Sequence record: SRR22947725_2340
DNA length: 35,719 nucleotides
Strand: one strand, 5' to 3'
Made by a program: the position numbers and the translations under genes
Shown: piece by piece, positions 4,728 to 34,184 of the stretch
How positions within the stretch are numbered: position 1 is the first letter of the stretch
Layout: every line of letters starts with the position of its first letter
Notes under the pieces: model-generated
What the model was told of the DNA's origin: nothing
Databases searched by the model: none
What the model saw: only the letters and a program-made list of their open reading frames with translations

Positions 4728-4774
4728 AATCAAAGCTTTTTATCTACTCAACAGGGTATGAAACCACAATCCCT

Positions 4775-8525: not shown

Positions 8526-8526
<1 letters not shown>
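6151..8526 (+). CDS. DUF1549 (PSCyt2) + DUF1553 (PSD1) planctomycete-type cytochrome c protein
   Basis: HWAFQP, NPIDAF, RRLYHDLIGLKP, FGERWGRHWLDVARYADT, CARCHDH heme motif, SGRLELA, NPLTSRVMVNRIW, PTHPEILDHLA, RRAVY and TTVPQQALF. Confidence 0.92.
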
Positions 8527-9928
<1,402 letters not shown>

Positions 9929-9932
<4 letters not shown>

Positions 9933-10351
9933 AAGTGTACTTCGCAGGCTCGATCCGGGGAGGCCGGGAAGATCAGCAAAAGTATTTAGAATTAATCGAT
10001 TTTATCTCGACCAAAGCAGAAGTTCTTACTGAACATGTCGGGTCCCACTCAATTGGAAAAATCGGAGAGGATGCTCTCGATGACATTGCAATCTACAAGC
10101 GTGACATGGAATGGCTCGAGGAAGCCGATGCCGTGATTGCTGAAGTCACCACCCCTTCCCTTGGAGTTGGCTATGAATTAGGAGTAGCCGAAAAACTTAA
10201 CAAACCCACCCTTTGCCTTTTCAATGAAGGCAAGAAGGATCAAACATTATCCGCAATGTTGACGGGCAATTCAAATTTTCTAAATTACCACTACCAATCT
10301 TTATCCCAGGCTAAACAAAAAATAACCGATTTTTTAAGCCTGGGTCTTTAG
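9929..10351 (+). CDS. DNPH1/Rcl-like 2'-deoxynucleoside 5'-phosphate N-hydrolase (nucleoside 2-deoxyribosyltransferase family)
   Basis: YFAGSIRGGRED, VLTEHV, D.EWLEEADAVIAEVTTPSLGVGYELG and LSAM closely follow recalled DNPH1 motifs. The GTG start overlaps the upstream stop (GTGA). Confidence 0.88.
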
Positions 10352-11248
10352 CTTTTTTAGAAACTCACCGGGACTCACTCCGGTCACCCGTTTAAAAACA
10401 GTCGAAAAATACTGACTGGATGAAAAACCCAGGCGATGAGATACTTCTTTAATATGCCATGAGCCCTGACTCAGTAATTGCTCGGCCTCGCGAACACGCT
10501 GACGATTAATAAAATCCAAAGGAGAATATCCGACTTGCTGACGAAAAATTTTACGAAACGCAGTCTCTGAAATACTCATTGATTTTGCAAGATGTTCAAT
10601 CGTGGGTGGACTATCCAAATTCTGAGTAATTTCTTTTATGCAATTCTGTATACCCTCTGAAATATCCGATTGGCCCAAATTCCCACCCTCCGCCGTATAA
10701 TCCCGGATTACTCTGACAAGTAAGTGATGAAGAAGAGCTCGACAAACCAGGCGTGAATGTTCGCTCGGAGCCCGGTGTTCGTCTACTATATCCTGAAACT
10801 GCCCCCCTATTTTACGAGAAACAGGGAATGCCCTAATTTCAAAACTATCCAAAGCGGACTTAATTTTTTGGGTCTGCTTCAAATCAATGCCAGGTAAAGC
10901 ACTCTCTTCATTCAATGCTATCCGTAGCCAAAAATGTTCACAGGGCTCAAGGGCACCAGTACGGCTTCCGTGACGTTCGCCTGGACGAATCACCAACATG
11001 GTACCCGCCCGCAAAATATAATTACTTTCCTCCACCCACCAATTCACTTCCCCATTTACAATATAATGGATCTCATACTCGCAGGGATGTGCATCCTCCT
11101 CCAGCGCTTGATCAAAAGCCTTACTAAAGTGAAGCCAACCGAGAATAGCCAATTCAGGAAGGAGCAAACTATTTTTTTCAAAGGTAATATGCTGCCGCCC
11201 AGGTTCTGGTCTAAAATCTCTCCACACATCTGACTTATTACCCGACAT
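10334..11248 (-). CDS. AraC family transcriptional regulator (cupin sensor + HTH)
   Basis: Cupin motifs H..YEIHYIVNG and IRPGERH. C-terminal TIEHLAK..FRKIFRQQVGYSP..IKEVSHRLGFSSSQYFSTVFKRVTGVSP. ATG at 11248 preferred to 11308 because a TTGACT lies 35 nt upstream of it. The 3' end overlaps the convergent DNPH1-like gene by 18 nt. Confidence 0.92.
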   Translation of the reverse strand: MSGNKSDVWRDFRPEPGRQHITFEKNSLLLPELAILGWLHFSKAFDQALEEDAHPCEYEIHYIVNGEVNWWVEESNYILRAGTMLVIRPGERHGSRTGALEPCEHFWLRIALNEESALPGIDLKQTQKIKSALDSFEIRAFPVSRKIGGQFQDIVDEHRAPSEHSRLVCRALLHHLLVRVIRDYTAEGGNLGQSDISEGIQNCIKEITQNLDSPPTIEHLAKSMSISETAFRKIFRQQVGYSPLDFINRQRVREAEQLLSQGSWHIKEVSHRLGFSSSQYFSTVFKRVTGVSPGEFLKKLKTQA

Positions 11249-11283
11249 GAAATAAAGAATGATTCCGAAAAAGAGAAAGTCAA
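11249..11283 (-). promoter_or_regulatory. Candidate leaderless promoter for the AraC gene
   Basis: Minus strand: TTGACT (11283-11278), 16 nt, CATTCT, 7 nt, then ATG at 11248. Confidence 0.5.
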
Positions 11284-11288
11284 CGACT

Positions 11289-11400
11289 TGTATAAATTTC
11301 GAAACCATTGATATTCAAAACTAAATTCGCTTTTCCTTAGCACTTAATTAGAAAATAATGAAACTTTGATTCCTACAGTTTGGCTATGTATAAATTTCGA
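11289..11400. promoter_or_regulatory. Perfect 14-bp direct repeat TGTATAAATTTCGA (11289-11302 and 11387-11400), candidate operator pair
   Basis: Two identical copies with starts 98 nt apart, in the divergent AraC/operon intergenic region. Confidence 0.55.
11366..11394 (+). promoter_or_regulatory. Candidate sigma70 promoter for the glycan operon
   Basis: TTGATT (11366-11371), 17 nt, TATAAA (11389-11394). The -10 box lies inside the second repeat copy. Confidence 0.45.
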
Positions 11401-11416: not shown

Positions 11417-14400
11417 ATGAAATACCCATTCAATACCATTAAAGTTATTTTATTCTACACCACGCTAATTCTATTTACCTGTGTAAGTGTAAGCCTGACC
11501 GCGGCTAAAAAAGCAACCCCTGAGGAGATTCAGAAAATTACCGAAGCTATTCCCGCCACTATCCAATCTGCAAAGAAATACAAGGTTTTGGTTTTCTCCA
11601 AAGCGTTTACTTATTACCACAGCTCCATCGCTGTAGCAAAAGAGATGGCCCGACAAATGGGTGAAAAAACCGGTCTCTTTGAAGCTGATTTCACAGATGA
11701 CCCCAAGGATCTCAGTGCTGAGAACCTGAAAAATTACGACACTGTCTACTTGAATAATTCAACCAGTATTGAAAGAGGCCTGACCACTGAAAAAATGCGG
11801 AAGGATTTTATTGAATATGTAAGAAACGGCGGTGGTTTGGTTGCTATTCATGCGGCCACGGATGGCGGATGGCCCGAATATACTGATATGGTGGGAGGAA
11901 ATTTCAATGGGCATCCATGGGGGCATCAAGGCACTTACTGTATCTGCAATGAGGATCCAAAGCATCCCATTGTGAATGGAATCTTCGATGGTAAACAGAG
12001 CTTTAATCTCAATGATGAGTTGTATCAATACAAAGACTTCGATCGAAAAAAAGTGAGGGTATTACTTTCTGTCGATATGTCGAAATTTGAAAATCATCGG
12101 GGTGGACGAAAGAGGGAGGACAATGACTACGCAATGGCCTGGGTCAAAGAATTTGGTAAGGGTCGAGTCTTTGTATCCAGTCCGGGTCACAATCATCACA
12201 TCTATTGGAACAAGGATATCCTTAAGATGTGGTATCAGGGTTTTCGATTTGTTCTCGGGGAACTTGATGCGGAGACTGAATCTATCCAAAAGCCAAGTTA
12301 TGCCCTACCGCCTAAAGAAGGAGAACAGGCCCCCATCGTTCGTTTCAAAACCCCGGAAGAGAGCCAGGAATCGTTCAAGGTCCAACCGGGATATTCCCTT
12401 GAGCTCGTAGCGGACAATCCCATGGTCACCGAACCAACCGTCTGTGTATGGGATGGAAATGGGAGAATGTATGTGGCCGAGTGGCGCACCTACATGCAGG
12501 ACATAAATGGTACCGGTACTAATGATCCGGTCAGCCAGGTCGTTCGTCTTGAGGACAAAAATGGGGATGGGGTTATGGATCACAAAACCATCTTCGCAAA
12601 AGACCTGCTCCTCCCGCGAATGATCCTGCCCCTGCTCGATTCTGTTCTTATCGCGGAGTCCAACACCAATGATATTTTTGAATACTTCGACCGTGATAAT
12701 GACGGAGTCGCTGAGGAGAAAAAGATTTGGTTCGAGGGTGGAAAACGCGGTGGTAATGTCGAACACCAACCCTCAGGATTAATTTGGAGTATGGACAATT
12801 GGCTCTACCTGACATACAGCGACTACCGACTTCGTTTGCATAATGGTAAAGTAATTAAGGGCGAAACCAAGGGAAACCGGGGCCAATGGGGATTGACTCA
12901 GGATAATGCCGGAAAAGTCATGTATGTGGATGCCGGTGCCGGCATTGGACCCGTCCATCCACTATTTCCAAATATTTACACAAAATGGCACCCCAAATGG
13001 GTTATGGCGGAAGGTTTCAGGGAGGTCTTTGCCATTGATAACATTGCGGATTCGCAGGGCGGATTTGGTAGCATGCGGGCCAATAACTCTGCCAAGAGTT
13101 TCACCGCAACCTGTGGACAGGCCATCTTCCGGGGGGATCGTTTGCCCAAGGATTTAATTGGTAATTTATTCTTTCATGAACCAGTTGGACGCCTGACCCG
13201 GCGGGCAAAAATCAAAACGGACTCCATGGGTCGGCGCGTGCTTCATAATGCTTATATAGAAGACGAATTTGTAACCAGTTCGGACGCCAATTTCAGACCG
13301 GTTAATTCGGCAACTGGACCGGACGGTACTCTCTATATCGTCGATATGCACCGCGGAGTGGTACAGGAATCTGCCTGGGTTCCGAAGGGTTCCTTCATTC
13401 ACTCCTCCATTAAGCACTATGGACTCGATCAAAATGTACAACGCGGACGAATTTATCGGGTCCGTCACTCTGGCTTCACACCCGGACCGCGTCCCAACAT
13501 GCTCAACGAAACATCCAGTGAACTGGTAAGCCATCTTTCCCACCCGAACGGATGGTGGAGGGATGAGGCCCAGAAATTAATCATTGTCAAGGGAGACCAG
13601 ACTGTGCTTCCCGCACTGCGCCAACTGGTGAAAAACTCTTTAAACCCACTGGCCCGACTGCATGCTCTCTGGACAATAGAGGGATTAAATGCAATTGACT
13701 TGGATTTTCTTAAAACCGTTTATCAGGATAATGATCCGACAATTCGGGCGGCAGCCATTCGGATGACTGAACCATTCTTTCATCAAGAAATAAGTACCAT
13801 TTCCGCCCTTCAATCTTTGGTTAGTGATCCACATCACGATGTTGCTATTCAACTTTTACTCTCTGCCTCTACCAAAGTTACACCTGAAACTCGGGCACTG
13901 GCTGGTTCCGTTTTGGCAGAAAATCCATCCAATACATACCTCAAGGAAATTGATGATGAATTGAATAAGGATTATTTTGCGGAAGTGGCACGGCAAAAAG
14001 AATTAGCCCAGTTAGAGGCGGAAGAAGTGGCCTTACTCAATGCAGGCAAAAAACATTTCGAAGCACTTTGTGCCACCTGCCATGCCCCGGATGGAACTGG
14101 AGTCAAGACTCCAGACGGCAAAATGAAAATGGCTCCCTCTTTCGTTAACAATCCCACCGTGATCGGCTCCAAAGATGTACTTGCAAAAGTCGCTCTCCAA
14201 GGAATTTCAGGACCTTTACGCGGAAAATCTTATATGGGTGGGTTCATGATGCCCTTGAAGACAAACGACGATCAATACATCGCTTCCGTGTTAACTTACA
14301 TACGCAACAGCTTTGGTAATAAAGCAGGAATGATTAAAACGGAGGAGGTTGCACAAGCTCGTGAGGAAACCGCGAGTATGACTCAGGCCTACACGGAGGC

Positions 14401-15259
14401 CTCTCTCCGTGAAATTCTGCTCAATTCCGGGAGCGAAATCAAACTTTGGAAACTTTCGGCAAGCCATGGACAAAAGCATCTGCAATTCCTCCAGGATAAG
14501 GATGAAAAGACGACCTTTGCAACCAAGGCGGCCTTAAAAGTAGGCACTTGGATCGAGGCCGACTTCCCTCATCAGAGGAATGTATTCAAAATCATTCTCA
14601 CTGCCAAAGGTGGGGATTACCCGGGTATGTTAAAAGTGGAAACATCCGAGAACGGAGATTCCTGGGTTACAGTCGCAGATCAGGTTAAGGGATCCCAGGT
14701 TACTACGATTCCATTCGACATGGTGGTGGCTAAAAAAGTTCGGATCACCAGCCTGGAGGAAAAAAATAGTTGGTGGCAATTGTACAAACTCGAAATAATT
14801 GGTCCGGGCATGGGTGATGTTGATCAGTACAAACCTTCCAACCGTCATTACCTCCAACTTAGTGACGCAAAAAAAGTCCAAGTTGGCTGGAGCACCGCTA
14901 AACAGAATCGATCTGTGACAGGAGGAGAGCTAAAAGTGGCAGGCCAAAAGTTTACCCATGGTATAGGCACTCATGCACACAGCGAAATCACCTATGATCT
15001 GAATGGAAAAGGGTATCGACGATTTTATAGCATGGTGGGACACAATGACGGTGGACGGGATACCTACCTGACTTTTGAGGTTCATGTGGACAACAAAAAA
15101 GTTTTTGACAGTGGAAATATGACAAAAGGAGAACCTGCCAAGGCATTGGATATTTCCGTTCAAGGAGCAAACGAACTCAAGTTGGTAGTTACCAATGGTC
15201 AGGATGGGAAACCAGAAGGTGACCACGCGGACTGGGGCTATGCTTTCCTTGTGAAATGA
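11417..15259 (+). CDS. Multidomain secreted protein: ThuA-like + PVC-type dehydrogenase propeller + HEAT + cytochrome c + F5/8C (CBM32-like) + NPCBM/NEW2 (CBM51-like)
   Basis: ThuA motifs KVLVFSKAFTYYHSSI, GGGLVAIHAATD, DELY and GKGRVFVSSPGH. Propeller motifs WDGNGRMYVAEWRTYM and FRPVN..GPDGTLYIVDMHRG. Heme motif CATCH with distal MMP. Discoidin-like segment KVETSENGDSWVTV. NPCBM motifs GIGTHAHSEITYDL and GDHADWG. Confidence 0.85.
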   Translation: MKYPFNTIKVILFYTTLILFTCVSVSLTAAKKATPEEIQKITEAIPATIQSAKKYKVLVFSKAFTYYHSSIAVAKEMARQMGEKTGLFEADFTDDPKDLSAENLKNYDTVYLNNSTSIERGLTTEKMRKDFIEYVRNGGGLVAIHAATDGGWPEYTDMVGGNFNGHPWGHQGTYCICNEDPKHPIVNGIFDGKQSFNLNDELYQYKDFDRKKVRVLLSVDMSKFENHRGGRKREDNDYAMAWVKEFGKGRVFVSSPGHNHHIYWNKDILKMWYQGFRFVLGELDAETESIQKPSYALPPKEGEQAPIVRFKTPEESQESFKVQPGYSLELVADNPMVTEPTVCVWDGNGRMYVAEWRTYMQDINGTGTNDPVSQVVRLEDKNGDGVMDHKTIFAKDLLLPRMILPLLDSVLIAESNTNDIFEYFDRDNDGVAEEKKIWFEGGKRGGNVEHQPSGLIWSMDNWLYLTYSDYRLRLHNGKVIKGETKGNRGQWGLTQDNAGKVMYVDAGAGIGPVHPLFPNIYTKWHPKWVMAEGFREVFAIDNIADSQGGFGSMRANNSAKSFTATCGQAIFRGDRLPKDLIGNLFFHEPVGRLTRRAKIKTDSMGRRVLHNAYIEDEFVTSSDANFRPVNSATGPDGTLYIVDMHRGVVQESAWVPKGSFIHSSIKHYGLDQNVQRGRIYRVRHSGFTPGPRPNMLNETSSELVSHLSHPNGWWRDEAQKLIIVKGDQTVLPALRQLVKNSLNPLARLHALWTIEGLNAIDLDFLKTVYQDNDPTIRAAAIRMTEPFFHQEISTISALQSLVSDPHHDVAIQLLLSASTKVTPETRALAGSVLAENPSNTYLKEIDDELNKDYFAEVARQKELAQLEAEEVALLNAGKKHFEALCATCHAPDGTGVKTPDGKMKMAPSFVNNPTVIGSKDVLAKVALQGISGPLRGKSYMGGFMMPLKTNDDQYIASVLTYIRNSFGNKAGMIKTEEVAQAREETASMTQAYTEASLREILLNSGSEIKLWKLSASHGQKHLQFLQDKDEKTTFATKAALKVGTWIEADFPHQRNVFKIILTAKGGDYPGMLKVETSENGDSWVTVADQVKGSQVTTIPFDMVVAKKVRITSLEEKNSWWQLYKLEIIGPGMGDVDQYKPSNRHYLQLSDAKKVQVGWSTAKQNRSVTGGELKVAGQKFTHGIGTHAHSEITYDLNGKGYRRFYSMVGHNDGGRDTYLTFEVHVDNKKVFDSGNMTKGEPAKALDISVQGANELKLVVTNGQDGKPEGDHADWGYAFLVK

Positions 15260-15263
15260 TTTG

Positions 15264-16304
15264 ATGACAGACCTTGCCCAACGCAGCCCTCTTAATCCGT
15301 TAATTACTCCTTCTCAGGTTAACTCATACCATCCTGATACGGAAGTAGAATGCCTATTGAATCCGGGTGTTTTTCAATTCCGGGAAATGACCTGGTTAGT
15401 TGTCCGGGTCGCTGAACGGCCTGAACAAAAAGAAGGAGAAATTTCGTTTCCGATCATTAAAAACGGATCAGTAGAAATTGTATCCTTTCGATTAGATGAT
15501 CCGTTATTGGATGTAAGTGACCCAAGGGAACCCCGTTATAATGGTGTAACCTACTTATCAACCCTTTCACACTTAAGATTATTCAACAGCGAAGACGGGG
15601 TTCATTTTAAAGATGCGGGTTGGCCTAACTTATTTGGAAAAGGTGATTTGGAAAGCTACGGAATAGAAGACTGTCGGGTTGCTTCGATGAAGGATGGTTC
15701 TTTTCTACTTACTTATACCGCCACTTCCGAAAATGGATACGGTGTTGGGTTGCGCCGAACCTACGATTGGAAAACACATGAAGAATTTGGGATGATACTT
15801 CCCCCTGCCAACAAAGACTGTGCAATCTTCGAAAAGAAAATTAAGGGGGAATATTTTTGTTTTCACAGACCAAGCGGAGTGGGCCTAGGCGGTCACTATA
15901 TTTGGCTGGCTTCCTCTCCGGATTTATTCCATTGGGGAAACCATACATGCCTCGCAAAAACTCGCGAAGGGATGTGGGATTGTTCTCGAATTGGTGCGGG
16001 AGCGGCCCCGATAAAGACCGAGCGGGGATGGTTGGCAATTTATCATGGGGCAGACCATCAAAACAGATACTGTCTGGGAGCTATATTACTTGATAAAAAC
16101 AATCCAAGTAAAGTAGTAGGAAGGAGCAAAAAACCGATTATGGAACCCACTGCCGACTACGAAAAAGAAGGCTTTTTTGGAAATGTTGTCTTTACAAATG
16201 GCCACATTGTGAAAGACGATCAACTTATTCTTTATTATGGTGCTTCCGACAGTGTAATTTGTTCCGCCGAATTTTCCATTTCGGAAATACTTAAAACCTT
16301 ATGA
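15264..16304 (+). CDS. GH130 glycoside phosphorylase, Lin0857-like (putative beta-1,2-mannobiose/oligomannoside phosphorylase)
   Basis: NPLITP, LVVRVAERP, SFRLDD..DPR, YLSTLSHLR, YGIEDCRV, NKD, HRPS, WLASSPDL, PIKTERGWLAIYHGA and EP.ADYEKEGFFGNVVF match my recollection of Listeria Lin0857 throughout. No signal peptide. TTG at 15261 is an alternative start. Confidence 0.85.
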   Translation: MTDLAQRSPLNPLITPSQVNSYHPDTEVECLLNPGVFQFREMTWLVVRVAERPEQKEGEISFPIIKNGSVEIVSFRLDDPLLDVSDPREPRYNGVTYLSTLSHLRLFNSEDGVHFKDAGWPNLFGKGDLESYGIEDCRVASMKDGSFLLTYTATSENGYGVGLRRTYDWKTHEEFGMILPPANKDCAIFEKKIKGEYFCFHRPSGVGLGGHYIWLASSPDLFHWGNHTCLAKTREGMWDCSRIGAGAAPIKTERGWLAIYHGADHQNRYCLGAILLDKNNPSKVVGRSKKPIMEPTADYEKEGFFGNVVFTNGHIVKDDQLILYYGASDSVICSAEFSISEILKTL

Positions 16305-17167
16305 GATCCGAAAAATTAATTTGGGAAGGCTTCCCCGATCATGACATATATAATATTACTGCCCCTTTTCATTGGATGGGACGAGATGTAATCGCTGGAC
16401 GGGTTGAAAAAAGAACCGAAGAACTCTCTCAAATTGTATTATTCGAAAAATCTGCCAACGGTTGGACTCCAGTTCCCAATGCACCGGTTTTTTCTGGACT
16501 GCAGGATCCTTGTGTTACCCGGATAAATGGAAAGCTATTGCTTGGCGGGGTACGCTTCCCCGTGATCATCGGAGATGATCAAAATGCCTGGCAGATGGAA
16601 TTCTTCATCGAGAATGAGGGAGGCAAGTTTGAAAAGGTTCTGACCGGACCACCCAAGATGAAAGATGTTCGCTTCCTTCAACTTCCGGATCACCGAATAT
16701 TTGTGTTAACCAGACCACAAGGAGAGAAAGGGGGTCGGGGGAAAATTGGATTTTGCATTGTGGATTCCCTCGCAGACGCAACCCACGATGTAATTGATCA
16801 GGCTCCCCTTTTTGATCACTGTGTGGAAAAATTATGGGTCGGGGCAAATGAGGCTCATAATCTAAAAAACGGCAGGATTGGTGTACTGGGTCACATTGCC
16901 GAATTTGACGAAGATCAAAATCGACACTACTACGCGATGGCATTCGCAATTGATCCAGAAGAAGGAACCTCTACTCTGCCTGAAATTATTGCCAAGCGTT
17001 GTGATTTTCCGAAGGGAGAATCTAAGCGCGAAGATCTTGAGGATGTCATCTTCTCCGGAGGGATCCAACGGCAAGAAAATGGAAAAGCCCTTCTCTTTGC
17101 AGGTCTAAGTGATGCGGAAGCAGGTTTCATCGAAATACCCGATCCTTTCCTTCAATACGAAAACTGA
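16301..17167 (+). CDS. DUF1861 / GT108 family protein (Leishmania MTP-like beta-1,2-mannosyltransferase/phosphorylase homolog)
   Basis: DIYNITAPF, IAGRVE, LQDP, GP.KMKDVR, TRPQG..GGRGKIGF, GANE, IGVLGHIA, HYYAMAF and DVIFSGG are characteristic of DUF1861. ATGA overlap with the GH130 gene. Confidence 0.82.
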   Translation: MRSEKLIWEGFPDHDIYNITAPFHWMGRDVIAGRVEKRTEELSQIVLFEKSANGWTPVPNAPVFSGLQDPCVTRINGKLLLGGVRFPVIIGDDQNAWQMEFFIENEGGKFEKVLTGPPKMKDVRFLQLPDHRIFVLTRPQGEKGGRGKIGFCIVDSLADATHDVIDQAPLFDHCVEKLWVGANEAHNLKNGRIGVLGHIAEFDEDQNRHYYAMAFAIDPEEGTSTLPEIIAKRCDFPKGESKREDLEDVIFSGGIQRQENGKALLFAGLSDAEAGFIEIPDPFLQYEN

Positions 17168-17168
17168 G

Positions 17169-19142
17169 GTGCGCCTGCTTCTGCTCATAAGTTTATTTTT
17201 CGGTTGCTTGGGCCAAGCTCAAAACTTGCCAAGTATTGCGAAATTCCCAGACCTTCCTCCTGATTATTCTTTACGGGATTGGAAAAAAACTGCCCTTGAT
17301 TACGATGCTTTGGTCTTTGATCAGAACCGGACCGGAAAATTCCTTCCCCTTATTTGGATGGACGATTCGAAAAAGGTAAACCCAGCCAATGGTTTTGGCC
17401 TTCCCACTTATGTTGGGGATTCACGGCAAAACCCGAAAACCGCTTTACATGAAGCAATCACCGGTATGGCATCGGTCCTGAATGGCACCTTACTTGGAGA
17501 AGACAAGTCAACGTATATTCCCATGCTTGCCACCCATTTTCACCAAAAGAATGGAATTGGACTGTACCTTAATCAGGTGGGCACAAGAGGGGATAGTTTC
17601 TGGTATGATCTTTTGCCCAGTCTATTATTCGTTCATCTTTACCATCACTACCCACAAACATCGATTCTAGCAGAACAGTTCCATTCAACTATTAGTACAT
17701 GGGAGCAGATTGCCGGGCAACTGGGTAACAATTTTGATCATACTGGATATGATTTTCACACGAAACTACCGGTGAACCGCGGATGGTCGGAAGCAGATAT
17801 CGTGGCAGGTCTGGCTTGCTTACAATATATTGGATGGAAGAAAACGCGGAACCAATCCTTTTTGGAGATGAGTAAAAAATGCCTTAATTGGATGGACCGG
17901 AGAAAAACCAATCCATACTACGAATGTCTTGCCCCCTATGGTGCTTATGTATCCGCACTTTATAATGCAGAACGGAACGGTACTCACCAGACTGCAAAAT
18001 TCATTGAATGGGTCCTCGCTGGAGATAATCCTAGAAAATGGGGTGCGATGTTTGAATCATGGAACGGAATCCCGGTTCATGGTCTAATTGGCAGTGTATA
18101 TCCAAATTATGAATATGCCTTTGCCATGAACACTTTCCAGGCAGTTGGCATCATGGCACCCATTGCACGCTATGAAGACAAGTTTGCCCGGGATTTAGCC
18201 AAGTGGATTCTAAATGTTTCTTCCAACAGTCGATACTTTTACCCAGATGCATGGTCCCCTGAACAGCAGACCAGTTACAAATGGGCCCAAGAACATGATC
18301 CCACTTTTTGCATTCCCTACGAAGGAATTAGAAAACAGGGAACCATTCGAAATTATCCCGAAGTAGACCGCATGAAATTGGGCACCCTCAAATTGGGAGA
18401 ATCAACCAACCCAGATAAAGACATGCTCCTGACCGCAAACCATGAGGGTGAAGTTCACTACGAGGGAGAGATTAACTTACCCACCGGAATGGTTCATTCC
18501 CTGATTGCAGTGATCAGGCATAGAAAAATCGAGAACGAAATTCAAGTCTTCATCCAAGGAAACCCCACCAATCAGATCAATTATCTCGCCCAAAAATCGG
18601 ATCACCAAAAGCTTTCTATCAAGGGGAAAGGAATGATTGAATTGGTGGTGAGGGCAAAAGGACTACAACCCGGTGAAGTAATTCAAGTCCAGGATCTGGT
18701 GGTGGAAACCAGGTTACCCAATCCGCCCCATGTCGGTGGAGATGCTACTATTCATGGGTGGGGTGAGACTGACCTCGGACTCTATGGTGGATCCAATGTC
18801 GGCTACCTTGCCGCATTGATTGAACCGACCAATATTGAAGGGATTCTTGCGATTGACCCAGTGGCAACCGATATCATAAACCCAGACGCATTTCCCACTC
18901 GTCTATTCTATAATCCATTCCCTAAAGCAAAAACCATTCATTGGAATTGTGGAAAACATCCGGTACGGGTGTACGACGCACTTAGCAATAAAACCATTTA
19001 TTCATCCGTTCACGGTTCACAGAACTTTGAAATTCCTGCCAAACAAGCAATCATGCTTGTCTCCACCCCAGCGGATAAACCCTTGGAAAGAATCAAAGGT
19101 CACCTAATTTGCGAGAATATCGTGGTCGACTTCCAACTCTAA
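17169..19142 (+). CDS. Uncharacterised secreted protein, probable carbohydrate-active enzyme
   Basis: GTG at 17169, 1 nt after the upstream stop, gives a signal peptide (MRLLLLISLFFGCLGQA|Q). Aromatic- and acid-rich blocks RDWK, HEAI, FWYDLLP, EAD, YYE, YAFAMNT and PYEG. I cannot name a family with confidence. Confidence 0.75.
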   Translation: MRLLLLISLFFGCLGQAQNLPSIAKFPDLPPDYSLRDWKKTALDYDALVFDQNRTGKFLPLIWMDDSKKVNPANGFGLPTYVGDSRQNPKTALHEAITGMASVLNGTLLGEDKSTYIPMLATHFHQKNGIGLYLNQVGTRGDSFWYDLLPSLLFVHLYHHYPQTSILAEQFHSTISTWEQIAGQLGNNFDHTGYDFHTKLPVNRGWSEADIVAGLACLQYIGWKKTRNQSFLEMSKKCLNWMDRRKTNPYYECLAPYGAYVSALYNAERNGTHQTAKFIEWVLAGDNPRKWGAMFESWNGIPVHGLIGSVYPNYEYAFAMNTFQAVGIMAPIARYEDKFARDLAKWILNVSSNSRYFYPDAWSPEQQTSYKWAQEHDPTFCIPYEGIRKQGTIRNYPEVDRMKLGTLKLGESTNPDKDMLLTANHEGEVHYEGEINLPTGMVHSLIAVIRHRKIENEIQVFIQGNPTNQINYLAQKSDHQKLSIKGKGMIELVVRAKGLQPGEVIQVQDLVVETRLPNPPHVGGDATIHGWGETDLGLYGGSNVGYLAALIEPTNIEGILAIDPVATDIINPDAFPTRLFYNPFPKAKTIHWNCGKHPVRVYDALSNKTIYSSVHGSQNFEIPAKQAIMLVSTPADKPLERIKGHLICENIVVDFQL

Positions 19143-19146
19143 CTCT

Positions 19147-20874
19147 ATGCACTGGATCGACTACAGTATCATTTTTCTCTACATCGCATTTGCGATTGGG
19201 GTAGGTATTTTCTTCTCTGGTAAAGCATCCAAAAATTCAGAATCCTTTTTTCTAGGCGGACGTTCTCTTCCCTGGTGGGCAATTTGTCTATCCATGATTG
19301 CCACTAGTTTCGCATCGGATACTCCAATCTGGGTGACGGAGGTGACCAGAAAAGACGGTCTCGAAAGAATGTGGTGGGTCATTGTTTCAGTCCTCCCCCT
19401 GATCATCGGTATTTTTCTTTTTTCCAGGCTATGGAGAAGAACGAACCTGATTACGGATGCGGAATTTTTTGAATTTCGATACGAGGGGAAATCCGCGGCA
19501 ATCCTGCGTGGGGTCCGGGCGTGTTACGGAGGAATCTTACAAAATCTATTAACCATTGGTTGGGTCACTTTTGGAATGAGTACGGTGATTGAAGTGCTCA
19601 CTCCTTTTGACCAGACACAGGCAATCGTAGTGCTTATGGCCGTGGCCCTTTTTTACGCCACCTTTTCCGGATTCTATGGAGTCGTGACCACCGATGTAGT
19701 TCAATTCTTCATCACTATGGGAAGCATGCTTGCCCTTGCCTGTATTGCCGTAAGCCAAGCAGGTGGACTGGACACTATTCTTACCGGGATTCGATCGATG
19801 CCTGAATACGGTGAAAAAACCCTCTCCCTCTTCCCCGATTTTTCAACCTTCAATTCAGATGTGCTCAAAATGCTGGTGATTTTCACCCTGGTCTGGTGGA
19901 GCGATGCCAACGGATATAATATGCAAAGAATGTCTGCCTGTCGAAATGAGAAAGACGCCATTCGGGCAACCTTATTTTACTCCATTTTCCAATCATGTCG
20001 CCCCTGGCTTTGGGTAGTTGTGGGGCTAGTTTCCATTGTGGCCTTCCCTGCCCTATCCGATCATAGCAAGGCGTACCCGATGGTAATCAATGAATATCTC
20101 GGGATTGGGCTGAAGGGACTTCTGATTACCGCCTTCCTCGCCGCTTTCATGTCCACTATAGACACGCACCTCAATTGGGGAGCTTCTTTCCTAACCATTG
20201 ATTTATACAAACGGTTTTACCGGAAAGATGCGACTGAAGCTCATTACGTGCGGGCTTCCAAATTATTTATGGTTTTACTTATGATCGCAGGTGCAATCAT
20301 TGCCACCCAAGTCGAATCGGTCAGCGGGGTAATGGAATGGCTCGCGTATCTGATGATCCCCGGAGGTATTGCCTCAGTCCTTCGATGGTTTTGGTGGCGG
20401 ATTAATGCGTTCACCGAGTTAACCGCTTTGGTAGGAGGATTACTTGGAGGCATTCTTTTTAAACTACTCGATTCCGACTGGATTGTTTGGGGAAAGCCAT
20501 GGGGCAGCTTCGCCTGGGAATTCAAAGTGGCTCTTTTAGTCAGTGTAATCTTCCCACTCAGTATTCTTGTTACTTTTCTGACCCAACCGGTATCCAAAGA
20601 AAAACTGATTACATTTTACCGCCAGGTTCGACCGGGTGGTGCATGGGGGCCAATCCGTAAAGCAGTGGGTAAAGTTTCTGGATCCACCCTCACCCTATCC
20701 AGTTGGCTCGATGTCATAGGAGGGGTCATGCTCTGCTATGGATTATCTCTGGCGATCGCCTATGCAATTCTTCTTCACTTTCCTGCCTGTGGTATCTGTT
20801 CCGCCATTTCATTCACGGGTGCTCTTCTGGTATGGAGATGGTATAAAAAAGAAGTGATACGCCTCACTGAATAA
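19147..20874 (+). CDS. Sodium:solute symporter (SSS/SLC5 family)
   Basis: About 13 hydrophobic segments. FFLGGRSLPWW, SMIATSFASDTP, FFEFRY, GVVTTDVVQF, MQR and AAFMST. Confidence 0.93.
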   Translation: MHWIDYSIIFLYIAFAIGVGIFFSGKASKNSESFFLGGRSLPWWAICLSMIATSFASDTPIWVTEVTRKDGLERMWWVIVSVLPLIIGIFLFSRLWRRTNLITDAEFFEFRYEGKSAAILRGVRACYGGILQNLLTIGWVTFGMSTVIEVLTPFDQTQAIVVLMAVALFYATFSGFYGVVTTDVVQFFITMGSMLALACIAVSQAGGLDTILTGIRSMPEYGEKTLSLFPDFSTFNSDVLKMLVIFTLVWWSDANGYNMQRMSACRNEKDAIRATLFYSIFQSCRPWLWVVVGLVSIVAFPALSDHSKAYPMVINEYLGIGLKGLLITAFLAAFMSTIDTHLNWGASFLTIDLYKRFYRKDATEAHYVRASKLFMVLLMIAGAIIATQVESVSGVMEWLAYLMIPGGIASVLRWFWWRINAFTELTALVGGLLGGILFKLLDSDWIVWGKPWGSFAWEFKVALLVSVIFPLSILVTFLTQPVSKEKLITFYRQVRPGGAWGPIRKAVGKVSGSTLTLSSWLDVIGGVMLCYGLSLAIAYAILLHFPACGICSAISFTGALLVWRWYKKEVIRLTE

Positions 20875-20875
20875 A

Positions 20876-22438
20876 ATGAAACTCCTGAAATCGGTCTATC
20901 GCTCCAGCTCTTTTTTGATCTTCCTTTTCATTTGGTTGGAGTCCACCGCGGCCCCAAAACCCAACATTCTTCTCATCACCGCCGACGATCTGGGATGGGA
21001 TTCATTGGGTTGCATGGGGAACCCCCTTGAAGGATTGTCCCCAAACTTGGATCGTCTTGCCTCCGAAGGCTTACTGATCAAGCACGGCTATGTGGCAACC
21101 CCCATTTGCGGGCCTTCCCGCCAAGCTCTTTACACCGGAAGGTTTCCACAGAGCACTGGACTTATGGGACACGGAGTCCAACCTCCTAATTGGTGGAAAT
21201 TAAATAGGAGCAATGCAGGAACTCAATCAATCACATCCCTCCTGTTACAGAATGGATACCTCAGTGGAATGATCGGAAAACACGGATCCGAATGGTGTCA
21301 GTTCAGTCTTCCCCCACACGGGCGAAACGATCAGACCGGAATGGGACGAAATCCGGAAAAATACTTCGCCTACACCCGTCAGTTCCTTGCCCGGGCAAAA
21401 GAAGAAAAGAAGCCTTTCTTTCTCGCCGCCAATGCCCATGACCCCCATCGCTATTGGGCAAGGCATCCAGATGAAACATCTAAATGGATCAATCAAATGA
21501 TGGGAGATGAACCATGGGAACGCCTGCTCAATGGCAAACCTTACCCCGATCCAAAGTCCAGATTTATACCCGAGCAATGCCCTGTCCCACCCGCCTATCC
21601 CAGGGTACCAAAATTAAAAGAATCTCTGGCTAGTTACTATGACTCCGTCAATCGAATGGACCAAGTTGTCGGAGGGGTGCTACAAGCACTAGAAGAAAGC
21701 GGACTGGCGAAAAATACCCTCGTGCTCTTTCTCTCCGATCATGGGATGGCGTGGGATTTAAGCAAGTGGTCCCTTTATCCATCCGGGGTCCGCACCCCAA
21801 TCCTTATTCGTTGGCCCGCACAAGTGAAAGCCGGACAAATTGATTCACAATCCATTGTTTCAGTTGTTGATATTGCTCCCACCATTGCGGAACTTTGTGG
21901 ATTATCCCCCATGACTAAAACCGATGGAAAATCTTTTTCTTCTTTATTGAAAAAACGACAGTCAAAATGGAAACGCTCCAGTGCATTCAGTTGTTTTAAT
22001 TATATGAACAATAGCCCTGAAATCGATAATTCGATTGATTCCTTTCCTTCTGATTTACCTGAAAAATTTGATCAATACCGACCATCTCGCTCTTTAAACA
22101 ACAAAGATTTCAGTTATGTATGGAATGGGTGGGCTGATGGCAATCGATCCTTACCGAGAACCATGCTCGGAGAATTTCACTGGATGATAACAAAACTGGC
22201 AGGGAACAAGACTAATTCGACCTACGGAGATTATATTGAAAGGAAAAATTTTATTGAATTTAGAACGCGGGAAGAATTGTACGATTTATCCAAGGATCCT
22301 GGCTGCCGTACCAATCTATCCAAACATGATAATCATCAAACTACCTTGAAGGATTTTAGGAATCGCATGAAAGAGGTTTTGCAAAAAACCAACGATCATG
22401 AATTAGATAACTACCTAACCTTCTTAAATAAAAAATGA
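20876..22438 (+). CDS. Formylglycine-dependent (S1) sulfatase, secreted
   Basis: Signal peptide. PNILLITADDLG, CGPSRQALYTG (CxPxR), GKH, DPH, SDHG and EELYDL..DP. Confidence 0.93.
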   Translation: MKLLKSVYRSSSFLIFLFIWLESTAAPKPNILLITADDLGWDSLGCMGNPLEGLSPNLDRLASEGLLIKHGYVATPICGPSRQALYTGRFPQSTGLMGHGVQPPNWWKLNRSNAGTQSITSLLLQNGYLSGMIGKHGSEWCQFSLPPHGRNDQTGMGRNPEKYFAYTRQFLARAKEEKKPFFLAANAHDPHRYWARHPDETSKWINQMMGDEPWERLLNGKPYPDPKSRFIPEQCPVPPAYPRVPKLKESLASYYDSVNRMDQVVGGVLQALEESGLAKNTLVLFLSDHGMAWDLSKWSLYPSGVRTPILIRWPAQVKAGQIDSQSIVSVVDIAPTIAELCGLSPMTKTDGKSFSSLLKKRQSKWKRSSAFSCFNYMNNSPEIDNSIDSFPSDLPEKFDQYRPSRSLNNKDFSYVWNGWADGNRSLPRTMLGEFHWMITKLAGNKTNSTYGDYIERKNFIEFRTREELYDLSKDPGCRTNLSKHDNHQTTLKDFRNRMKEVLQKTNDHELDNYLTFLNKK

Positions 22439-23856
22439 TTTCTACCTTATCGACTCGTTTCATAAATTTATTTCCCTTACTTGGATTTGCCCTTTTGTGC
22501 CAAATTCTTGTGGCTGAACAAACCAAGCCCAACTTTATCATTATCATCGGGGACGATGTGGGATGGGATGCCTTCGGATGTACAGGGATGAAAGAGGCAA
22601 GAACTCCGGCGATCGATCAGTTGGCAAACGAATCAACCATGATGACTCGTTTCTACTGCAGCGTTTCCCAATGTGCTCCCCTTCGGGCCGAGCTTTACAC
22701 TGGTCTATTCCCAATGAATAACGGCGTGCTCGCCAATGCGAGGAAAGAAAAACGTACAGGGATTAAAAATATCGCCGATCATTTGAATCCGCTTGGGTAC
22801 AAGGTTGGACTGTCTGGAAAGAAACACTTTGGCTTAGGCACTGCCAAGATCGATGAGATCCCCGGTTTTCCCTCCAATGCGAATGGATCGAACCAGATCC
22901 ATTCATTCGATGGAGTCGAACATTATATTTCCCAGGCAAAGAAGGAAGGAAACTCGTTTTGCGTGGTTATTGGGGCGACCCACGCACACCATCCATGGGA
23001 TCATGGAGAAGAATCAAATTACCCTGTGGGAAAAGTAAATTTACGTCCCCACTACATTGACACACCGGCCGCCCGGCAGGCGGTTGCCAAACATGCAGCC
23101 GAAGTCGAAGTTCTCGATCAACAAGTTCGCGAGACCCGCGAACTGATGAAGAAGATGGACTTGGGAAAGGACACGATTCTGATTTTCCTGAGCGAGCAGG
23201 GAATAGCCATGCCCCGGGGAAAATGGTCCCCCTACGAACACGGATCACGAGCCATTTGCCTGGCCCAGTGGAAGGGAAAAATCCTCTCACGCAAGACCGA
23301 TGCCCTCGCCATGTACTGCGACATCGTTCCCACATTGATCGACTTTGCAGGGGGGGGGAATCCCGGTCTGGACGGTAAATCACTCAGGAAACTATGGACC
23401 AGCAAGAAGATCAACAACCACCGTAAAGAAATCCTGATCTCCAATGTCCACCCATTCTGGCAAAAGGCCATTGTCACCGACACCTACAAATTAATCTGGA
23501 CCGGGCATCCGGAAAGAGAGCATATCTTCAGTAACTTCACATCTAAAAGTAAATTTTTCGCCAAACCTTGGATAGAATGGATAGAGAAGGCCCAGAATAA
23601 TCAAAGAGTGGCCCGCAAAGTTGATCATATCCTTCAGCCCAAAGCCTTCGAGCTGTATAATATCGTGAACGATCCATACGAAATCAAAGACCTTTCCAAT
23701 CTTCCCGAAAACAAGAAAAGAATCGTCACGCTCAAGGCGAAGCTCAAGAAATTAATGACCGACTGCGGGGAATCAACCACCCCTCCATTAGAAACAGCAC
23801 CCAAAACTAAGAAAGATAAGGGCAAGCGACGCAAAATCCAAAAAACCTCAAAGTAA
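22435..23856 (+). CDS. Formylglycine-dependent (S1) sulfatase, secreted
   Basis: Signal peptide. PNFIIIIGDD, CAPLRAELYTG, GKKH, SEQG and ELYNIVNDPYE. Lys/Arg-rich tail. ATGA overlap with the upstream gene. Confidence 0.9.
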   Translation: MISTLSTRFINLFPLLGFALLCQILVAEQTKPNFIIIIGDDVGWDAFGCTGMKEARTPAIDQLANESTMMTRFYCSVSQCAPLRAELYTGLFPMNNGVLANARKEKRTGIKNIADHLNPLGYKVGLSGKKHFGLGTAKIDEIPGFPSNANGSNQIHSFDGVEHYISQAKKEGNSFCVVIGATHAHHPWDHGEESNYPVGKVNLRPHYIDTPAARQAVAKHAAEVEVLDQQVRETRELMKKMDLGKDTILIFLSEQGIAMPRGKWSPYEHGSRAICLAQWKGKILSRKTDALAMYCDIVPTLIDFAGGGNPGLDGKSLRKLWTSKKINNHRKEILISNVHPFWQKAIVTDTYKLIWTGHPEREHIFSNFTSKSKFFAKPWIEWIEKAQNNQRVARKVDHILQPKAFELYNIVNDPYEIKDLSNLPENKKRIVTLKAKLKKLMTDCGESTTPPLETAPKTKKDKGKRRKIQKTSK

Positions 23857-25713
23857 ATGACCATGACTACAAAGACCCGCCTTCTAAACAAAATTGCACT
23901 TCTGGCATTTTTTGTATCTTGCACGCTCCCCTTAACCGGAAAAGTTATAAAGCCCAACATTCTCTGGATTACCAGCGAGGATAACAGTATTGAATGGATA
24001 AGTTGCTACGGAAGCAAGAATGCCAAAACTCCCAACATTGACCAGTTGGCGAAGGAAGGGTTCCGTTACCTGTACTGTTTCGATAATGGTGCGGTCTGTG
24101 CCCCTACCCGTTCCTCTTGGATTACCGGGATGCATTCGATTTCCAATGGAACCCAGCCGATGCGCAGCGGATTCGAGATTCCCGCCACGATCAGCTTTTA
24201 CAACGAGCTCCTGCAAAAAGCGGGCTACTTCACAAGTAATTGTTCGAAAACCGACTACAACCTCAGAGCACCCAGTGGTCGCAACCCCAAGAACTTCTGG
24301 AACTATTCCGGAAAGGAATATGCAGGAACTTGGAAACTGCGTGAAAAAGGCCAACCCTTCTTCACAGTATACAATATTGGAGAGAGTCATGAATCCAGAG
24401 CCTTTGGCGATCATAAGGACGAGTCCATCGATCCAGAGGAAATGATCCTCGCTCCCTACCATCCGGATCTTCCCGAAATGCGCAATACTTACGCCAAATA
24501 TGCCAGTGCCATATCTAAAATGGATTCTTTAGTGGGGCAAGCGATCGAAAACCTCAAGCAGGACGGACTCTATGAAAATACAATCATTGTATACAACTCC
24601 GACCACGGTGGCGTGCTTGCCCGCAGTAAAAGATTCCTCTATTCCAGCGGAATCCATTGTCCCCTGATCGTGCGCATTCCAGAAAAAATGAAAGCCCTTT
24701 ACCCAAAAGGGAAAACTCCAGGATCCACCATGGATCGGATTGTAAGCTTCATCGATATGCCCAAGACCTGGGTCAGCCTGACCGGTGCTGAAATGACAGA
24801 TAATTTTCAGGGCCGGATCTTTCTTGGTCCAAATACAGAACCTGAATCCCAGTACCATTTCTCGTGGCGAGAGCGTGCGGACGAACGATTCGACAATGTC
24901 CGGGTGATGCGTGATAAACAATTCGCTTATCATAAAAACTATGCTCCCTTTGCCCCCAACGGACAGTACCTTGCGTACATGCACAATATGAAGGCAACGG
25001 GTGCCTGGGAACGCCATCATTTGGCCGGGAAAACTAACGCGGTGACCGGTCGTTTCTTCGAACCCCGCCCATCCGAGGAATTCTACGATAACTTTAAAGA
25101 CTTTCACAATATTGACAACCAAATCGATGACCCATTGCACCAGACTAAGATTAAAGAACTCAAGAAAGAACTCCGCCGGCAACAACTCAAGCACTTTGAT
25201 TCGGGTCTCATGCCCGAAGAAATGAGGAACCGGATCATAAAGGAAAAGAATACCACGGTATATGCCTTTGTTCGGGACCCCAAGCTCTACCCATTAGCAC
25301 AATATCTCGACTACTCCGACCTTGCCCTGACCCGTAAAAAGAAAAACCTCAAGACCTTCATCAAGGGACTTGCGGACGAGGATCCGGTCAAACGCTACTG
25401 GTCAGTGATTGGCTTACTGCTCCTCGAAAAACAGGCCAAATCTGCGATTTCAGAACTGAAAAAAGTGCTCGGGGATCGCGATGAAATTCCAGCCTTTGCT
25501 GCCTGGGCAATTTATAAAGCCGGGGAAAAAACATTCGCCGAGAAATGGATGCTTGAGGCCATTACCCAAAATCCGGGAAACAAGACACTGGCCAATATCT
25601 TTGACTGGATGGGTACGGCCAGCCACTCCTTGCTCGCTAAAATTCCCAGCGATAAGCTCCCCCAAAAAGGTCTACTCAAAGATGTGATCAAACGATCAGG
25701 AGTACAAAATTAA
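23857..25713 (+). CDS. Formylglycine-dependent (S1) sulfatase with C-terminal HEAT-like helices
   Basis: Signal peptide. PNILWITSEDN, CAPTRSSWITG, KTDYN, HES and SDHG. C-terminal L.DEDPVKRYW HEAT-like repeat. Confidence 0.92.
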   Translation: MTMTTKTRLLNKIALLAFFVSCTLPLTGKVIKPNILWITSEDNSIEWISCYGSKNAKTPNIDQLAKEGFRYLYCFDNGAVCAPTRSSWITGMHSISNGTQPMRSGFEIPATISFYNELLQKAGYFTSNCSKTDYNLRAPSGRNPKNFWNYSGKEYAGTWKLREKGQPFFTVYNIGESHESRAFGDHKDESIDPEEMILAPYHPDLPEMRNTYAKYASAISKMDSLVGQAIENLKQDGLYENTIIVYNSDHGGVLARSKRFLYSSGIHCPLIVRIPEKMKALYPKGKTPGSTMDRIVSFIDMPKTWVSLTGAEMTDNFQGRIFLGPNTEPESQYHFSWRERADERFDNVRVMRDKQFAYHKNYAPFAPNGQYLAYMHNMKATGAWERHHLAGKTNAVTGRFFEPRPSEEFYDNFKDFHNIDNQIDDPLHQTKIKELKKELRRQQLKHFDSGLMPEEMRNRIIKEKNTTVYAFVRDPKLYPLAQYLDYSDLALTRKKKNLKTFIKGLADEDPVKRYWSVIGLLLLEKQAKSAISELKKVLGDRDEIPAFAAWAIYKAGEKTFAEKWMLEAITQNPGNKTLANIFDWMGTASHSLLAKIPSDKLPQKGLLKDVIKRSGVQN

Positions 25714-29853: not shown

Positions 29854-30816
29854 TTAGTTCCCGAGCAAGGAAACCATCCTCTTACCCAGAGCATCCCCGA
29901 TTAAAAAATAGCTTTCTGCATTTCCGAACCAATGGTGCCCATGTCCAACATTGGGCGACTCTTCCTTCGGACGGGCAAACGGAGTGGTTCTTACAAATGA
30001 GACTTTTCCCTTCCATTCCTTCCGCTCGCAGGCACTCCGTTGTGCCATCCTAATCATCTTCATCTTCTCACCTGCCTCTTCACCCATGTTCCCCAGTTCA
30101 CCCACAACAACGGGCAGATCCGGTTGTTGAAAATGGACTCGTAAATCCTGGACCAGATGGACTAGGTTGTTCTCGTACCCGGCAAGGGCATCCGGATCAA
30201 ACATATCATTCCAACCCTGAAACCAAATAAATCCTCCCCATTTTGGAATACGGTTCTTCAGGGTGGGAAATTCATCCCTGTAATGATCCAGGGCTTCCTT
30301 TACTTCGAACAACATTTTTTGATAATACTCTCCTGTCTCTCCACCCGCGGAAGGGGGACGAAAGTCCTTGTGTAAACTCTTTCCACCCCACGCAGTCTTG
30401 ATCAGGAGAACCGGTTCTTTAAAATAATTTCCCAGTCGATGCCCGATCTGGAGCTCCGGTCCAATATGGTGCCGGTTATTCATACTTCCATATCCGGTAA
30501 ACCCGATGCTTACCCCTCCTGCCATCACTCCCTGCTTATTTCTATAACGAATAAAAGCATCCTCCCGCTCAATCCATTTCCCCTTACTGTCCTGCAAATG
30601 GTTAAATAGACGGGGTGTCTTAGTCTGTTCTATAATTCGTACCAAAGTACCCTTGCCCCCGTTGTAATATTTCGGATGATCCATATCCACAACGCCCTGC
30701 CCTTGCATATTGGACTGACCAGCCAATAAAAACACCTGAAATATATTACTATCAGTTTCTTCAGCTGTTACTTGAAATATGCCCAGCAAAAAATAAAAGA
30801 CAGGCTGGACTCTCAT
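29854..30816 (-). CDS. SASA/DUF303 SGNH esterase (sialate/carbohydrate O-acetylesterase-like)
   Basis: Signal peptide. [31 protein letters not shown] and HHWFGNA. ATGA overlap with the upstream dehydratase stop. Confidence 0.88.
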
Positions 30817-31916: not shown

Positions 31917-31927
31917 TGCCTGTACAT

Positions 31928-32875: not shown

Positions 32876-32923
32876 GGGATAATTACTTTACGGTTCATTA
32901 TCATGATCGATCAATTTTAAAAA

Positions 32924-34174: not shown

Positions 34175-34184
34175 TAGGAAAGAT

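Follow-up and report, generated by a model that had tools for sequence, protein, structure and literature searches.

Do two overlapping genes in a bacterium serve the breakdown of imported beta-mannosides, or the upkeep of a mannan reserve like that of Leishmania? The genes in question, a GH130 gene (15264..16304, plus strand) and a GT108/DUF1861 gene (16301..17167, plus strand), lie in a stretch of 35,719 nucleotides from sequence record SRR22947725_2340 (the whole stretch is called the window). A previous sequence-only reading had offered two mechanisms for the pair, phosphorolysis split between the two enzymes or a mannogen-like storage cycle. The answer preferred here, with a probability of about 0.6, is cytoplasmic phosphorolysis of imported beta-mannosides, in which the GH130_4-like enzyme would act on chains with a degree of polymerisation (DP) of 2-3, and the GT108 enzyme on what the GH130 cannot take.

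The overlapping GH130 and GT108 genes

The GH130 open reading frame (ORF) spans 15261..16304 (+) and encodes 347 aa from a TTG; the ATG at 15264 gives 346 aa. The GT108 ORF (16301..17167, +) encodes 288 aa from an ATG start. At the junction, t-ATGA at 16300-16304, the GT108 ATG (16301-16303) overlaps the GH130 TGA (16302-16304), and this ATGA-type junction, with the GH130 match ending on the start base of the DUF1861 match, was kept in nine related loci (L001-L009). The N-termini (MTDLAQRSPLNPLITP... and MRSEKLIWEGFPDHD...) carry no hydrophobic leader, and leaders are present on the same-strand neighbours of the pair (N-termini were judged by eye throughout). The overlap at ATGA 16301-16304 and the missing signal peptides, both read earlier from the letters, were confirmed by the ORF list, the sequence and the N-termini, and with them the tight coupling and predicted cytoplasmic location of the pair. 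Each gene is present in one copy within the window. G+C content was 0.44-0.46 over the pair and 0.42-0.52 across the window; as the former falls inside the latter range, there was no compositional signal of recent horizontal import within the window. A complex prediction for the two proteins scored 0.01 against a mark of 0.34 with the supplied alignments unused, and counts neither for nor against binding.

The GH130 protein matched PF04041 Glyco_hydro_130 in Pfam (E 3.5e-49, 167.9 bits, cut-off 26) and 18 distinct PDB chains. The best solved relative was Uhgb_MS (9EQQ/9ERG/9ERH; E 5.3e-150, residues 3-345 aligned), followed by Lin0857 (5B0P; 8.6e-85) and the GH130_6 enzymes Teth514_1788 (1.6e-49) and Teth514_1789 (7.9e-46). 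Lin0857 of Listeria innocua is a GH130_4 beta-1,2-mannobiose phosphorylase with the same subfamily and lid architecture as the window GH130. The earlier description as Lin0857-like was thus right as to family and subfamily, but Lin0857 is not the closest characterised relative, since Uhgb_MS is closer. The NCBIfam equivalog BtaManbiosPhlase was matched at 379.1 bits, under its cut-off of 550, and the protein was therefore labelled GH130_4-like instead of being called an equivalog of the enzyme from Listeria.

Uhgb_MS is a beta-1,2-mannobiose/-triose phosphorylase and a very weak GDP-mannose transferase, with named functional residues (Ladeveze et al., PMC12814180). R47, P87-R88, E136-D137, K184, R202, R242 and F304/F305 were all kept in the window GH130 in the PDB alignment, and varied little or not at all across 19 aligned rows of GH130 genes adjoining DUF1861 genes (alignment A3; R88, R47, E136, K184, R202 and R242 invariant). 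The lid loop (~48 residues) aligned with Uhgb_MS 53-100 with a single one-residue gap. The lid, catalytic, phosphate-binding and beta-1,2 residues are therefore the same in both enzymes, and the differences are V89E in the lid and P206V, E207G and N211H in loop-L2, whose residues have been linked to nucleotide binding and GDP-mannose use in Uhgb_MS (PMC12814180). The lid of GH130_4 restricts these enzymes to DP 2-3 (PMC12814180). On these residues, the window GH130 is predicted to be a GH130_4-like beta-1,2-mannobiose/-triose phosphorylase, with a chain-length range that would follow from its lid. The source of Uhgb_MS is a human gut metagenome, and the article does not describe the genes around it (PMC12814180).

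The GT108 protein matched PF08950 DUF1861 over profile positions 12-295 of 296 (E 8.4e-97; 324.3 bits against a cut-off of 28), and this match, like that of the GH130, lies far beyond chance. Its only solved sequence relatives were from Leishmania (MTP4 at 2.2e-41, 2B4W, MTP2 and MTP1; 5 distinct chains). An AlphaFold2 model built from a 20-row GT108 alignment (alignment A1; predicted local distance difference test score, pLDDT, 94.5) was a five-bladed beta-propeller that matched 6Q4W, 6Q4X, 6Q4Z, 6Q50 and 2B4W in Foldseek at template-modelling (TM) scores of 0.89-0.92; the next-best matches were GH130 structures (TM <=0.72). With the Pfam match and the fold likeness to MTP1/2/4, the earlier assignment as an MTP homologue stands. 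The N-terminal extension (~20-45 residues) of 16 of the 20 alignment rows, those outside the closest relatives, is missing from the window protein.

The motifs noted earlier were all located in the window GT108, LQDP at 67-70, MKDVR at 120-124, R138-P139 and G197-H198. MTP4 D83 (the catalytic base), D134, R150, H208 and D285 correspond to window D69, D122, R138, H198 and D271, which were invariant in alignment A1. In the PDB alignment the one difference from MTP4 near these sites is at MTP4 Glu82, where the window protein has Gln68. R138 occupies the His/Arg switch, at which the strict transferases MTP1/2 carry His (PMC10913872), as is visible for MTP2 in the PDB alignment with the window protein. 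Arg was found there in 120/120 window-like proteins, 137/138 representatives and 120/120 proteins resembling a second family member, P0241. Position 68 was Gln in 120/120 window-like proteins and Glu in 120/120 P0241-like proteins (a set that includes the reconstructed ancestors AncY and AncZ); the 138 representatives had 101 Gln, 34 Glu, 1 Lys and 2 gaps, and Leishmania MTP1/2/4 have Glu in the PDB alignment.

A close comparison is with Leishmania mexicana MTP3/4/6/7 (6Q50), which are dual GT108 transferase-phosphorylases. These share with the window protein the Pfam family, the five-bladed propeller (TM 0.90, 33% identity), the catalytic Asp, the phosphate-binding Asp/Arg/His/Asp and the Arg at the switch. 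Unlike them, the window GT108 belongs to another deep clade, has Gln in place of Glu82, and is a single copy in a bacterial uptake operon instead of a member of a paralogue array for a reserve glycan.

Related loci and the surrounding operon

The DUF1861 family comprised 696 clusters at 50% identity (E <=0.001), and scanning one genome from each species with a pattern returned 464 encoding stretches. Loci were counted in the best-scoring 80 of the 464 with their flanking DNA; the scoring used an alignment headed by the window protein, which skews the proportions in favour of its relatives. The 80 loci were labelled as 47 Bacillota, 15 Verrucomicrobiota, 11 Planctomycetota, 3 Armatimonadota, 2 Elusimicrobiota, 1 unclassified and 1 Methanobacteriota. 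The window itself was assigned to a marine-type member of the Opitutales (Verrucomicrobiota), because an uncultured Opitutae genome bin (L001) matched it at 96-100% protein identity.

GH130 was present in the flanks of 60/80 loci, within 300 nt in 46/80; by phylum, it was found in 41/47 Bacillota, 14/15 Verrucomicrobiota and 4/11 Planctomycetota loci. The sequence-only reading had singled out the pairing and a copy outside Gram-positive bacteria. Neither is unusual: the pairing is common, with Bacillota supplying most of the cases, and 33/80 of the best loci are non-Bacillota by label. Non-Gram-positive DUF1861 copies are plainly not rare, despite the sample bias, and one relative was already named 'DUF1861 family protein [Verrucomicrobiota bacterium]' in its source database. 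Bacillota GH130_4 genes beside DUF1861 were 42-47% identical to the window GH130. In two proteins (P0170 and P0207; 680 and 820 aa) GH130 and DUF1861 were fused in one chain with the domains in the order of the window genes, and the GH130 part of P0170 was 39% identical to the window GH130 over its full length.

Pfam annotation of 135 ORFs from 11 loci placed the pair in sugar-uptake surroundings. Three Bacillota loci (L031, L037, L053) combined ATP-binding cassette (ABC) sugar-uptake genes with GH130 and DUF1861, L031 and L053 also with a LacI regulator. Loci of the Planctomycetes-Verrucomicrobia-Chlamydiae (PVC) superphylum had AraC-type regulators with major facilitator superfamily (MFS) or sodium/solute symporter family (SSF) transporters; an AraC-type gene was flanking in 8/15 Verrucomicrobiota and 11/11 Planctomycetota loci.

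Several loci had features of their own. Two DUF1861 genes were seen in some Bacillota (L035, L053, L066, L067, L076, L064): Geobacillus loci had two Gln-type copies ~5-6 kb apart, Sporolactobacillus had two in tandem, and in L035 (8001-10963) genes of the two deep clades adjoined each other, with GH130 after them. A contig labelled as a Methanobacteriota archaeon (L009, NZMM01000016.1, 8997 bases) carried the Opitutales-type row AraC-GH130-DUF1861-unknown-SSF with 57-85% protein identity to the window; its DUF1861 nested within the Opitutales clade (support 99), and it is probably a mis-binned bacterial contig. In a Chthoniobacterales locus (L014, 8831-14400) and a Tepidisphaeraceae locus (L016, 10404-13181), large PF12831 FAD oxidoreductases (925-930 aa) adjoined DUF1861 together with a GFO/IDH/MocA oxidoreductase and a 3-keto-disaccharide hydrolase, which hints at an oxidative glycoside route alongside phosphorolysis.

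In the window, the pair lies in a plus-strand row (11417-25713) whose consecutive genes overlap or are separated by <=4 bases. Divergent from it is an AraC-family regulator (10334..11308, minus strand; HTH_18 at 1.7e-21, HTH_AraC, AraC_binding and Cupin_2 in Pfam). The first operon gene (11417..15259, +) encodes an exported 1280-aa protein with a hydrophobic leader and ThuA, DUF7133 (PVC-type haem CxxCH), cytochrome c, F5/8 type C and NPCBM domains (NCBIfam TIGR02604 at 152 bits, cut-off 122). This gene was kept upstream of GH130 in L001, L002, L003, L005, L008 and L011. Two genes downstream of GT108, on the same strand as the pair, is a sodium:solute symporter family transporter (19147..20874, +; PF00474 at 1e-31, TIGR00813 at 7e-44 and below cut-off), which was kept in 10/11 of L001-L011, the exception (L007) ending 2 bases past the DUF1861 match. 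Three exported S1 sulfatases with leaders follow (20876-22438, 22435-23856 and 23857-25713, all +; PF00884 at 5e-45, 4e-28 and 4e-29). All three were kept in L001, L002, L004 and L005, and the first alone was seen within the DNA covered for L003, L006 and L008. The third was nearest to the 'S1_8C sulfatase' 9BBA (5.9e-70); a literature search on S1_8 sulfatases gave nothing usable toward the target glycan. Promoter and terminator scans returned fewer sites than shuffled sequence and were uninformative.

Between GT108 and the symporter lies an exported 657-aa protein of no known family (17169..19142, +), with a signal peptide or lipobox by eye. No match was found in Pfam, NCBIfam or PDB profiles; its profile gave nothing below E 0.028 against PDB sequences, and Pfam gave nothing consistent over all 38 members of its family alignment. 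There were 133 homologues at E <=1e-5, all sharing an N-terminal part without a Pfam domain, and a protein-atlas search returned unnamed clusters only, mostly from Planctomycetota. An AlphaFold2 model (pLDDT 92.3) showed a helical barrel followed by beta-sandwich domains, with weak likeness in Foldseek to (alpha/alpha)6 enzymes (GH127, GH146, GH9 and the N-acylglucosamine epimerase family; TM <=0.51). E252, E385 and D525 were invariant in the 38-row alignment. Leaders were present in 4/4 loci with a translated homologue and were of lipoprotein type in the Gram-positive Amphibacillus (L037). Homologues flanked DUF1861 in 12/15 Verrucomicrobiota, 10/11 Planctomycetota and 1/47 Bacillota loci. 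The protein can reasonably be considered a candidate for the enzyme that frees the imported sugar outside the cell, and this unannotated family, which travels with DUF1861 genes across phyla, may be the missing upstream glycan-cleaving partner. Separately, two fusions (P0126 and P0131; 778 and 773 aa) joined DUF1861 to PF10091 'Glycoamylase' in either order; a relation of the 657-aa protein to PF10091 was tried with hhalign and rejected (probability 0.4%).

Outside the row, an exported 861-aa protein (26178-28763, +) directly after the sulfatases had no family match (sub-threshold DUF3604, E 4e-4). Genes of proline-racemase-family, FAD-dependent DAO-type oxidoreductase, DHDPS-family and enolase-superfamily proteins (30813-35117, minus strand) resemble a hydroxyproline-type catabolic cluster. 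At the other end, a second DUF7133 protein with a 3-keto-disaccharide hydrolase domain and cytochrome c (1140-4733, minus strand) and a PSCyt2/PSD1 and DUF1501 pair (6151-9932, plus strand) are typical of Planctomycetota and Verrucomicrobiota genomes.

Two deep clades of GT108

Leishmania MTPs have reportedly been proposed to originate in Gram-positive bacteria, and the sequence-only reading expected a PVC copy to bear on that transfer. Phylogenies were built with FastTree (104 rows) and IQ-TREE ('quick', 53 rows, mixture model); both trees were unrooted and were made without Leishmania MTP and AsGT sequences. The Leishmania MTPs were not among the 150 representatives listed or the 120 P0241 matches listed, and their lineage was marked instead by the database entries of the synthetic ancestors AncY and AncZ. 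From AncZ descend both the Leishmania enzymes and AsGT, the bacterial enzyme nearest to them (Franceus et al., PMC10913872); AsGT comes from Anaerocolumna sedimenticola, a member of the Lachnospiraceae (PMC10913872).

Both trees resolved two deep clades with support of 100 each. The first contained the P0241-like proteins, several of them source-named 'MTP-1 family protein', together with AncY and AncZ; the second contained the window protein, separated from the AncY/AncZ clade at support 100 in both trees. Position 68 splits the clades cleanly into Glu and Gln types. The non-Bacillota rows of the window clade formed one group among Bacillota branches (35 rows in FastTree, 20 in IQ-TREE, support 100 each). 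Three Victivallales/Lentisphaeria proteins (P0481, P0491, P0506; PVC superphylum) fell in the Glu-type clade with AncY and AncZ, so PVC bacteria hold members of both clades.

The phylogeny proposed earlier was thus covered for the Bacillota (Firmicutes) relatives, and for the Leishmania line through the ancestral markers only. A modest conclusion follows, that the window copy lies off the line of descent to the Leishmania enzymes, and it says little about their transfer history. AsGT is, like the window protein, a bacterial GT108, the only characterised one in the literature consulted, and is reported to be a bifunctional phosphorylase/transferase (PMC10913872); unlike the window protein it descends from AncZ, as the bacterial enzyme nearest to those of Leishmania (PMC10913872), and AncZ is in the Glu-type clade.

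Phosphorolysis weighed against its alternatives

The operon context, with its regulator, exported proteins, sulfatases and symporter, is catabolic, and the loci, operon and fusions combined are the signature of an uptake-and-phosphorolysis pathway. On this reading a marine Opitutales bacterium has a regulated operon for glycan use, and the gene pair would be its cytoplasmic end. The exported proteins (the three sulfatases, the ThuA/haem/carbohydrate-binding protein and the helical-barrel protein) would process the glycan outside the cytoplasm, and the sodium/solute symporter would import the resulting beta-mannoside. GH130_4 would take beta-1,2-mannobiose and -triose, to which it would be confined because the lid blocks longer chains, and GT108, with Arg at its phosphate switch, would take longer beta-1,2-manno-oligosaccharides or a related beta-mannoside. 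Observed directly are the families, the fold, the conserved residues of the active sites, the layout of the operon, the export signals, the synteny kept among loci and the natural fusions; we infer the substrates, the direction of the reactions in the cell and this division of labour.

A precedent is found in Thermoanaerobacter sp. X-514, where the adjacent genes Teth514_1788/1789, beside an ABC transporter, encode cytoplasmic beta-1,2-mannoside phosphorylases whose chain-length preferences differ and complement each other (PMC4264767). The window operon likewise has two adjacent cytoplasmic phosphorylase-type genes and an importer. Both Teth514 enzymes are GH130_6, whereas the window has GH130_4 and GT108; a sodium/solute symporter stands in place of the ABC transporter, and sulfatases and an exported helical-barrel protein are added.

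Several points weigh against the phosphorolytic reading. Sodium/solute symporters are best known for monosaccharides and small solutes, which makes oligosaccharide import an assumption, and we know of no natural marine source of beta-1,2-mannan. The 80 loci favour relatives of the window. In 7/11 Planctomycetota loci DUF1861 had no GH130 in the flanks, so the pair is not obligatory. No assayed member of the Gln-type clade was found in the literature; the characterised GT108s (six Leishmania enzymes, AsGT and resurrected ancestors; PMC7660257, PMC8950772, PMC10913872) are in, or on the line to, the other clade (PMC10913872). The oldest reconstructed ancestor, AncX, was a strict transferase (PMC10913872), and the E82A mutant of MTP4, altered at the position of window Gln68, lost phosphorylase activity and kept transferase activity (PMC12814180).

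Of the alternatives, the one that survives best, although we consider it unlikely, keeps the pathway catabolic and gives the Gln-type GT108 a beta-mannoside other than plain beta-1,2-mannan to phosphorolyse, such as a hetero-disaccharide or a modified mannoside freed by the helical-barrel protein. The clean exchange of Gln for Glu at position 68 speaks for it, as in GH130 the residue before the catalytic Asp governs linkage specificity (E136 in Uhgb_MS, Y103 in Uhgb_MP; PMC12814180). So does L035, where both GT108 clades side by side suggest that they are not redundant, and so do the Planctomycetota, in which the helical-barrel family tracks DUF1861 (10/11) more than GH130 does (4/11). However, every other active-site residue examined is that of beta-1,2-mannan enzymes, Gln is capable of the same hydrogen bonds as Glu, and pairing and fusion with a beta-1,2-specific GH130_4 are most simply explained by a shared substrate series.

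The storage cycle, in which GT108 would build beta-1,2-mannan from GDP-mannose or mannose 1-phosphate as a mannogen-like reserve or compatible solute and GH130 would help in its turnover, as in Leishmania, is highly improbable. It agrees with the cytoplasmic location of both proteins, with the ability of GT108s to use GDP-mannose and the strict transferase at the root of the reconstructions (PMC10913872), with the weak transferase activity reported for beta-1,2-specific GH130 enzymes, and with Gln68 replacing the Glu on which MTP4 phosphorolysis depends (PMC12814180). It is at odds with operon mates that are exported sulfatases, exported carbohydrate-binding proteins, an importer and an AraC-type regulator, and with Bacillota relatives in LacI and ABC sugar-uptake operons. 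A Leishmania-type cycle has a His-switch priming transferase and an array of paralogous phosphorylases; the window has a single GT108 copy, with Arg at the switch where the priming transferases MTP1/2 have His. By Pfam, no mannose-1-phosphate guanylyltransferase was found in the window, and the GH130 loop-L2 residues for GDP-mannose use are altered (P206V, E207G, N211H). Of the two mechanisms first put forward, the split of phosphorolysis thus gained support from the GH130_4 lid, the transporter and the exported enzymes, and the storage cycle had none from context. Salvage, in which the phosphorylases would mainly supply mannose 1-phosphate for glycoconjugate synthesis without ATP instead of carbon and energy, was proposed for Teth514_1788/1789, whose cluster has a mannose-1-phosphate guanylyltransferase (PMC4264767), and would suit the NTP_transferase gene directly after GH130 in Geobacillus (L053), but it differs from the phosphorolytic reading solely in product fate and is very unlikely here, where the operon has no nucleotidyltransferase by Pfam and its three sulfatases and large exported proteins suggest that a glycan is degraded in bulk.

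Both families, GT108 and GH130_4, were established already, and the window pair adds a member to each. Neither a GH130_4-GT108 gene pair nor the Gln-type clade was found described in the literature, and an endo-acting beta-1,2-mannan hydrolase was likewise not found there, although subscription papers and supplements may hold such descriptions. GT108 beside GH130_4 is the usual arrangement for the bacterial family, and Verrucomicrobiota and Planctomycetota copies are plentiful in public genomes; this GH130_4-paired and sometimes fused branch is marked by a diagnostic Gln adjoining the catalytic Asp. On the ancestry of the Leishmania enzymes the finding is negative, the window copy being off that line, and for the bacterium the operon context gives a clear physiological hypothesis of uptake and phosphorolysis. 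A bolder and rather doubtful extension is that the operon encodes a system of three parts, not yet described, for a beta-mannoside glycan that is marine and possibly sulfated; in it the helical-barrel protein would be a new glycan-cleaving enzyme, the Gln-type GT108 a phosphorylase with a specificity unlike that of the Leishmania/AsGT clade, and GH130_4 the enzyme that finishes di- and trisaccharides. If this were true, GT108 would be mainly a catabolic phosphorylase family of free-living bacteria, and the storage role in Leishmania would be a late offshoot of the other GT108 clade.

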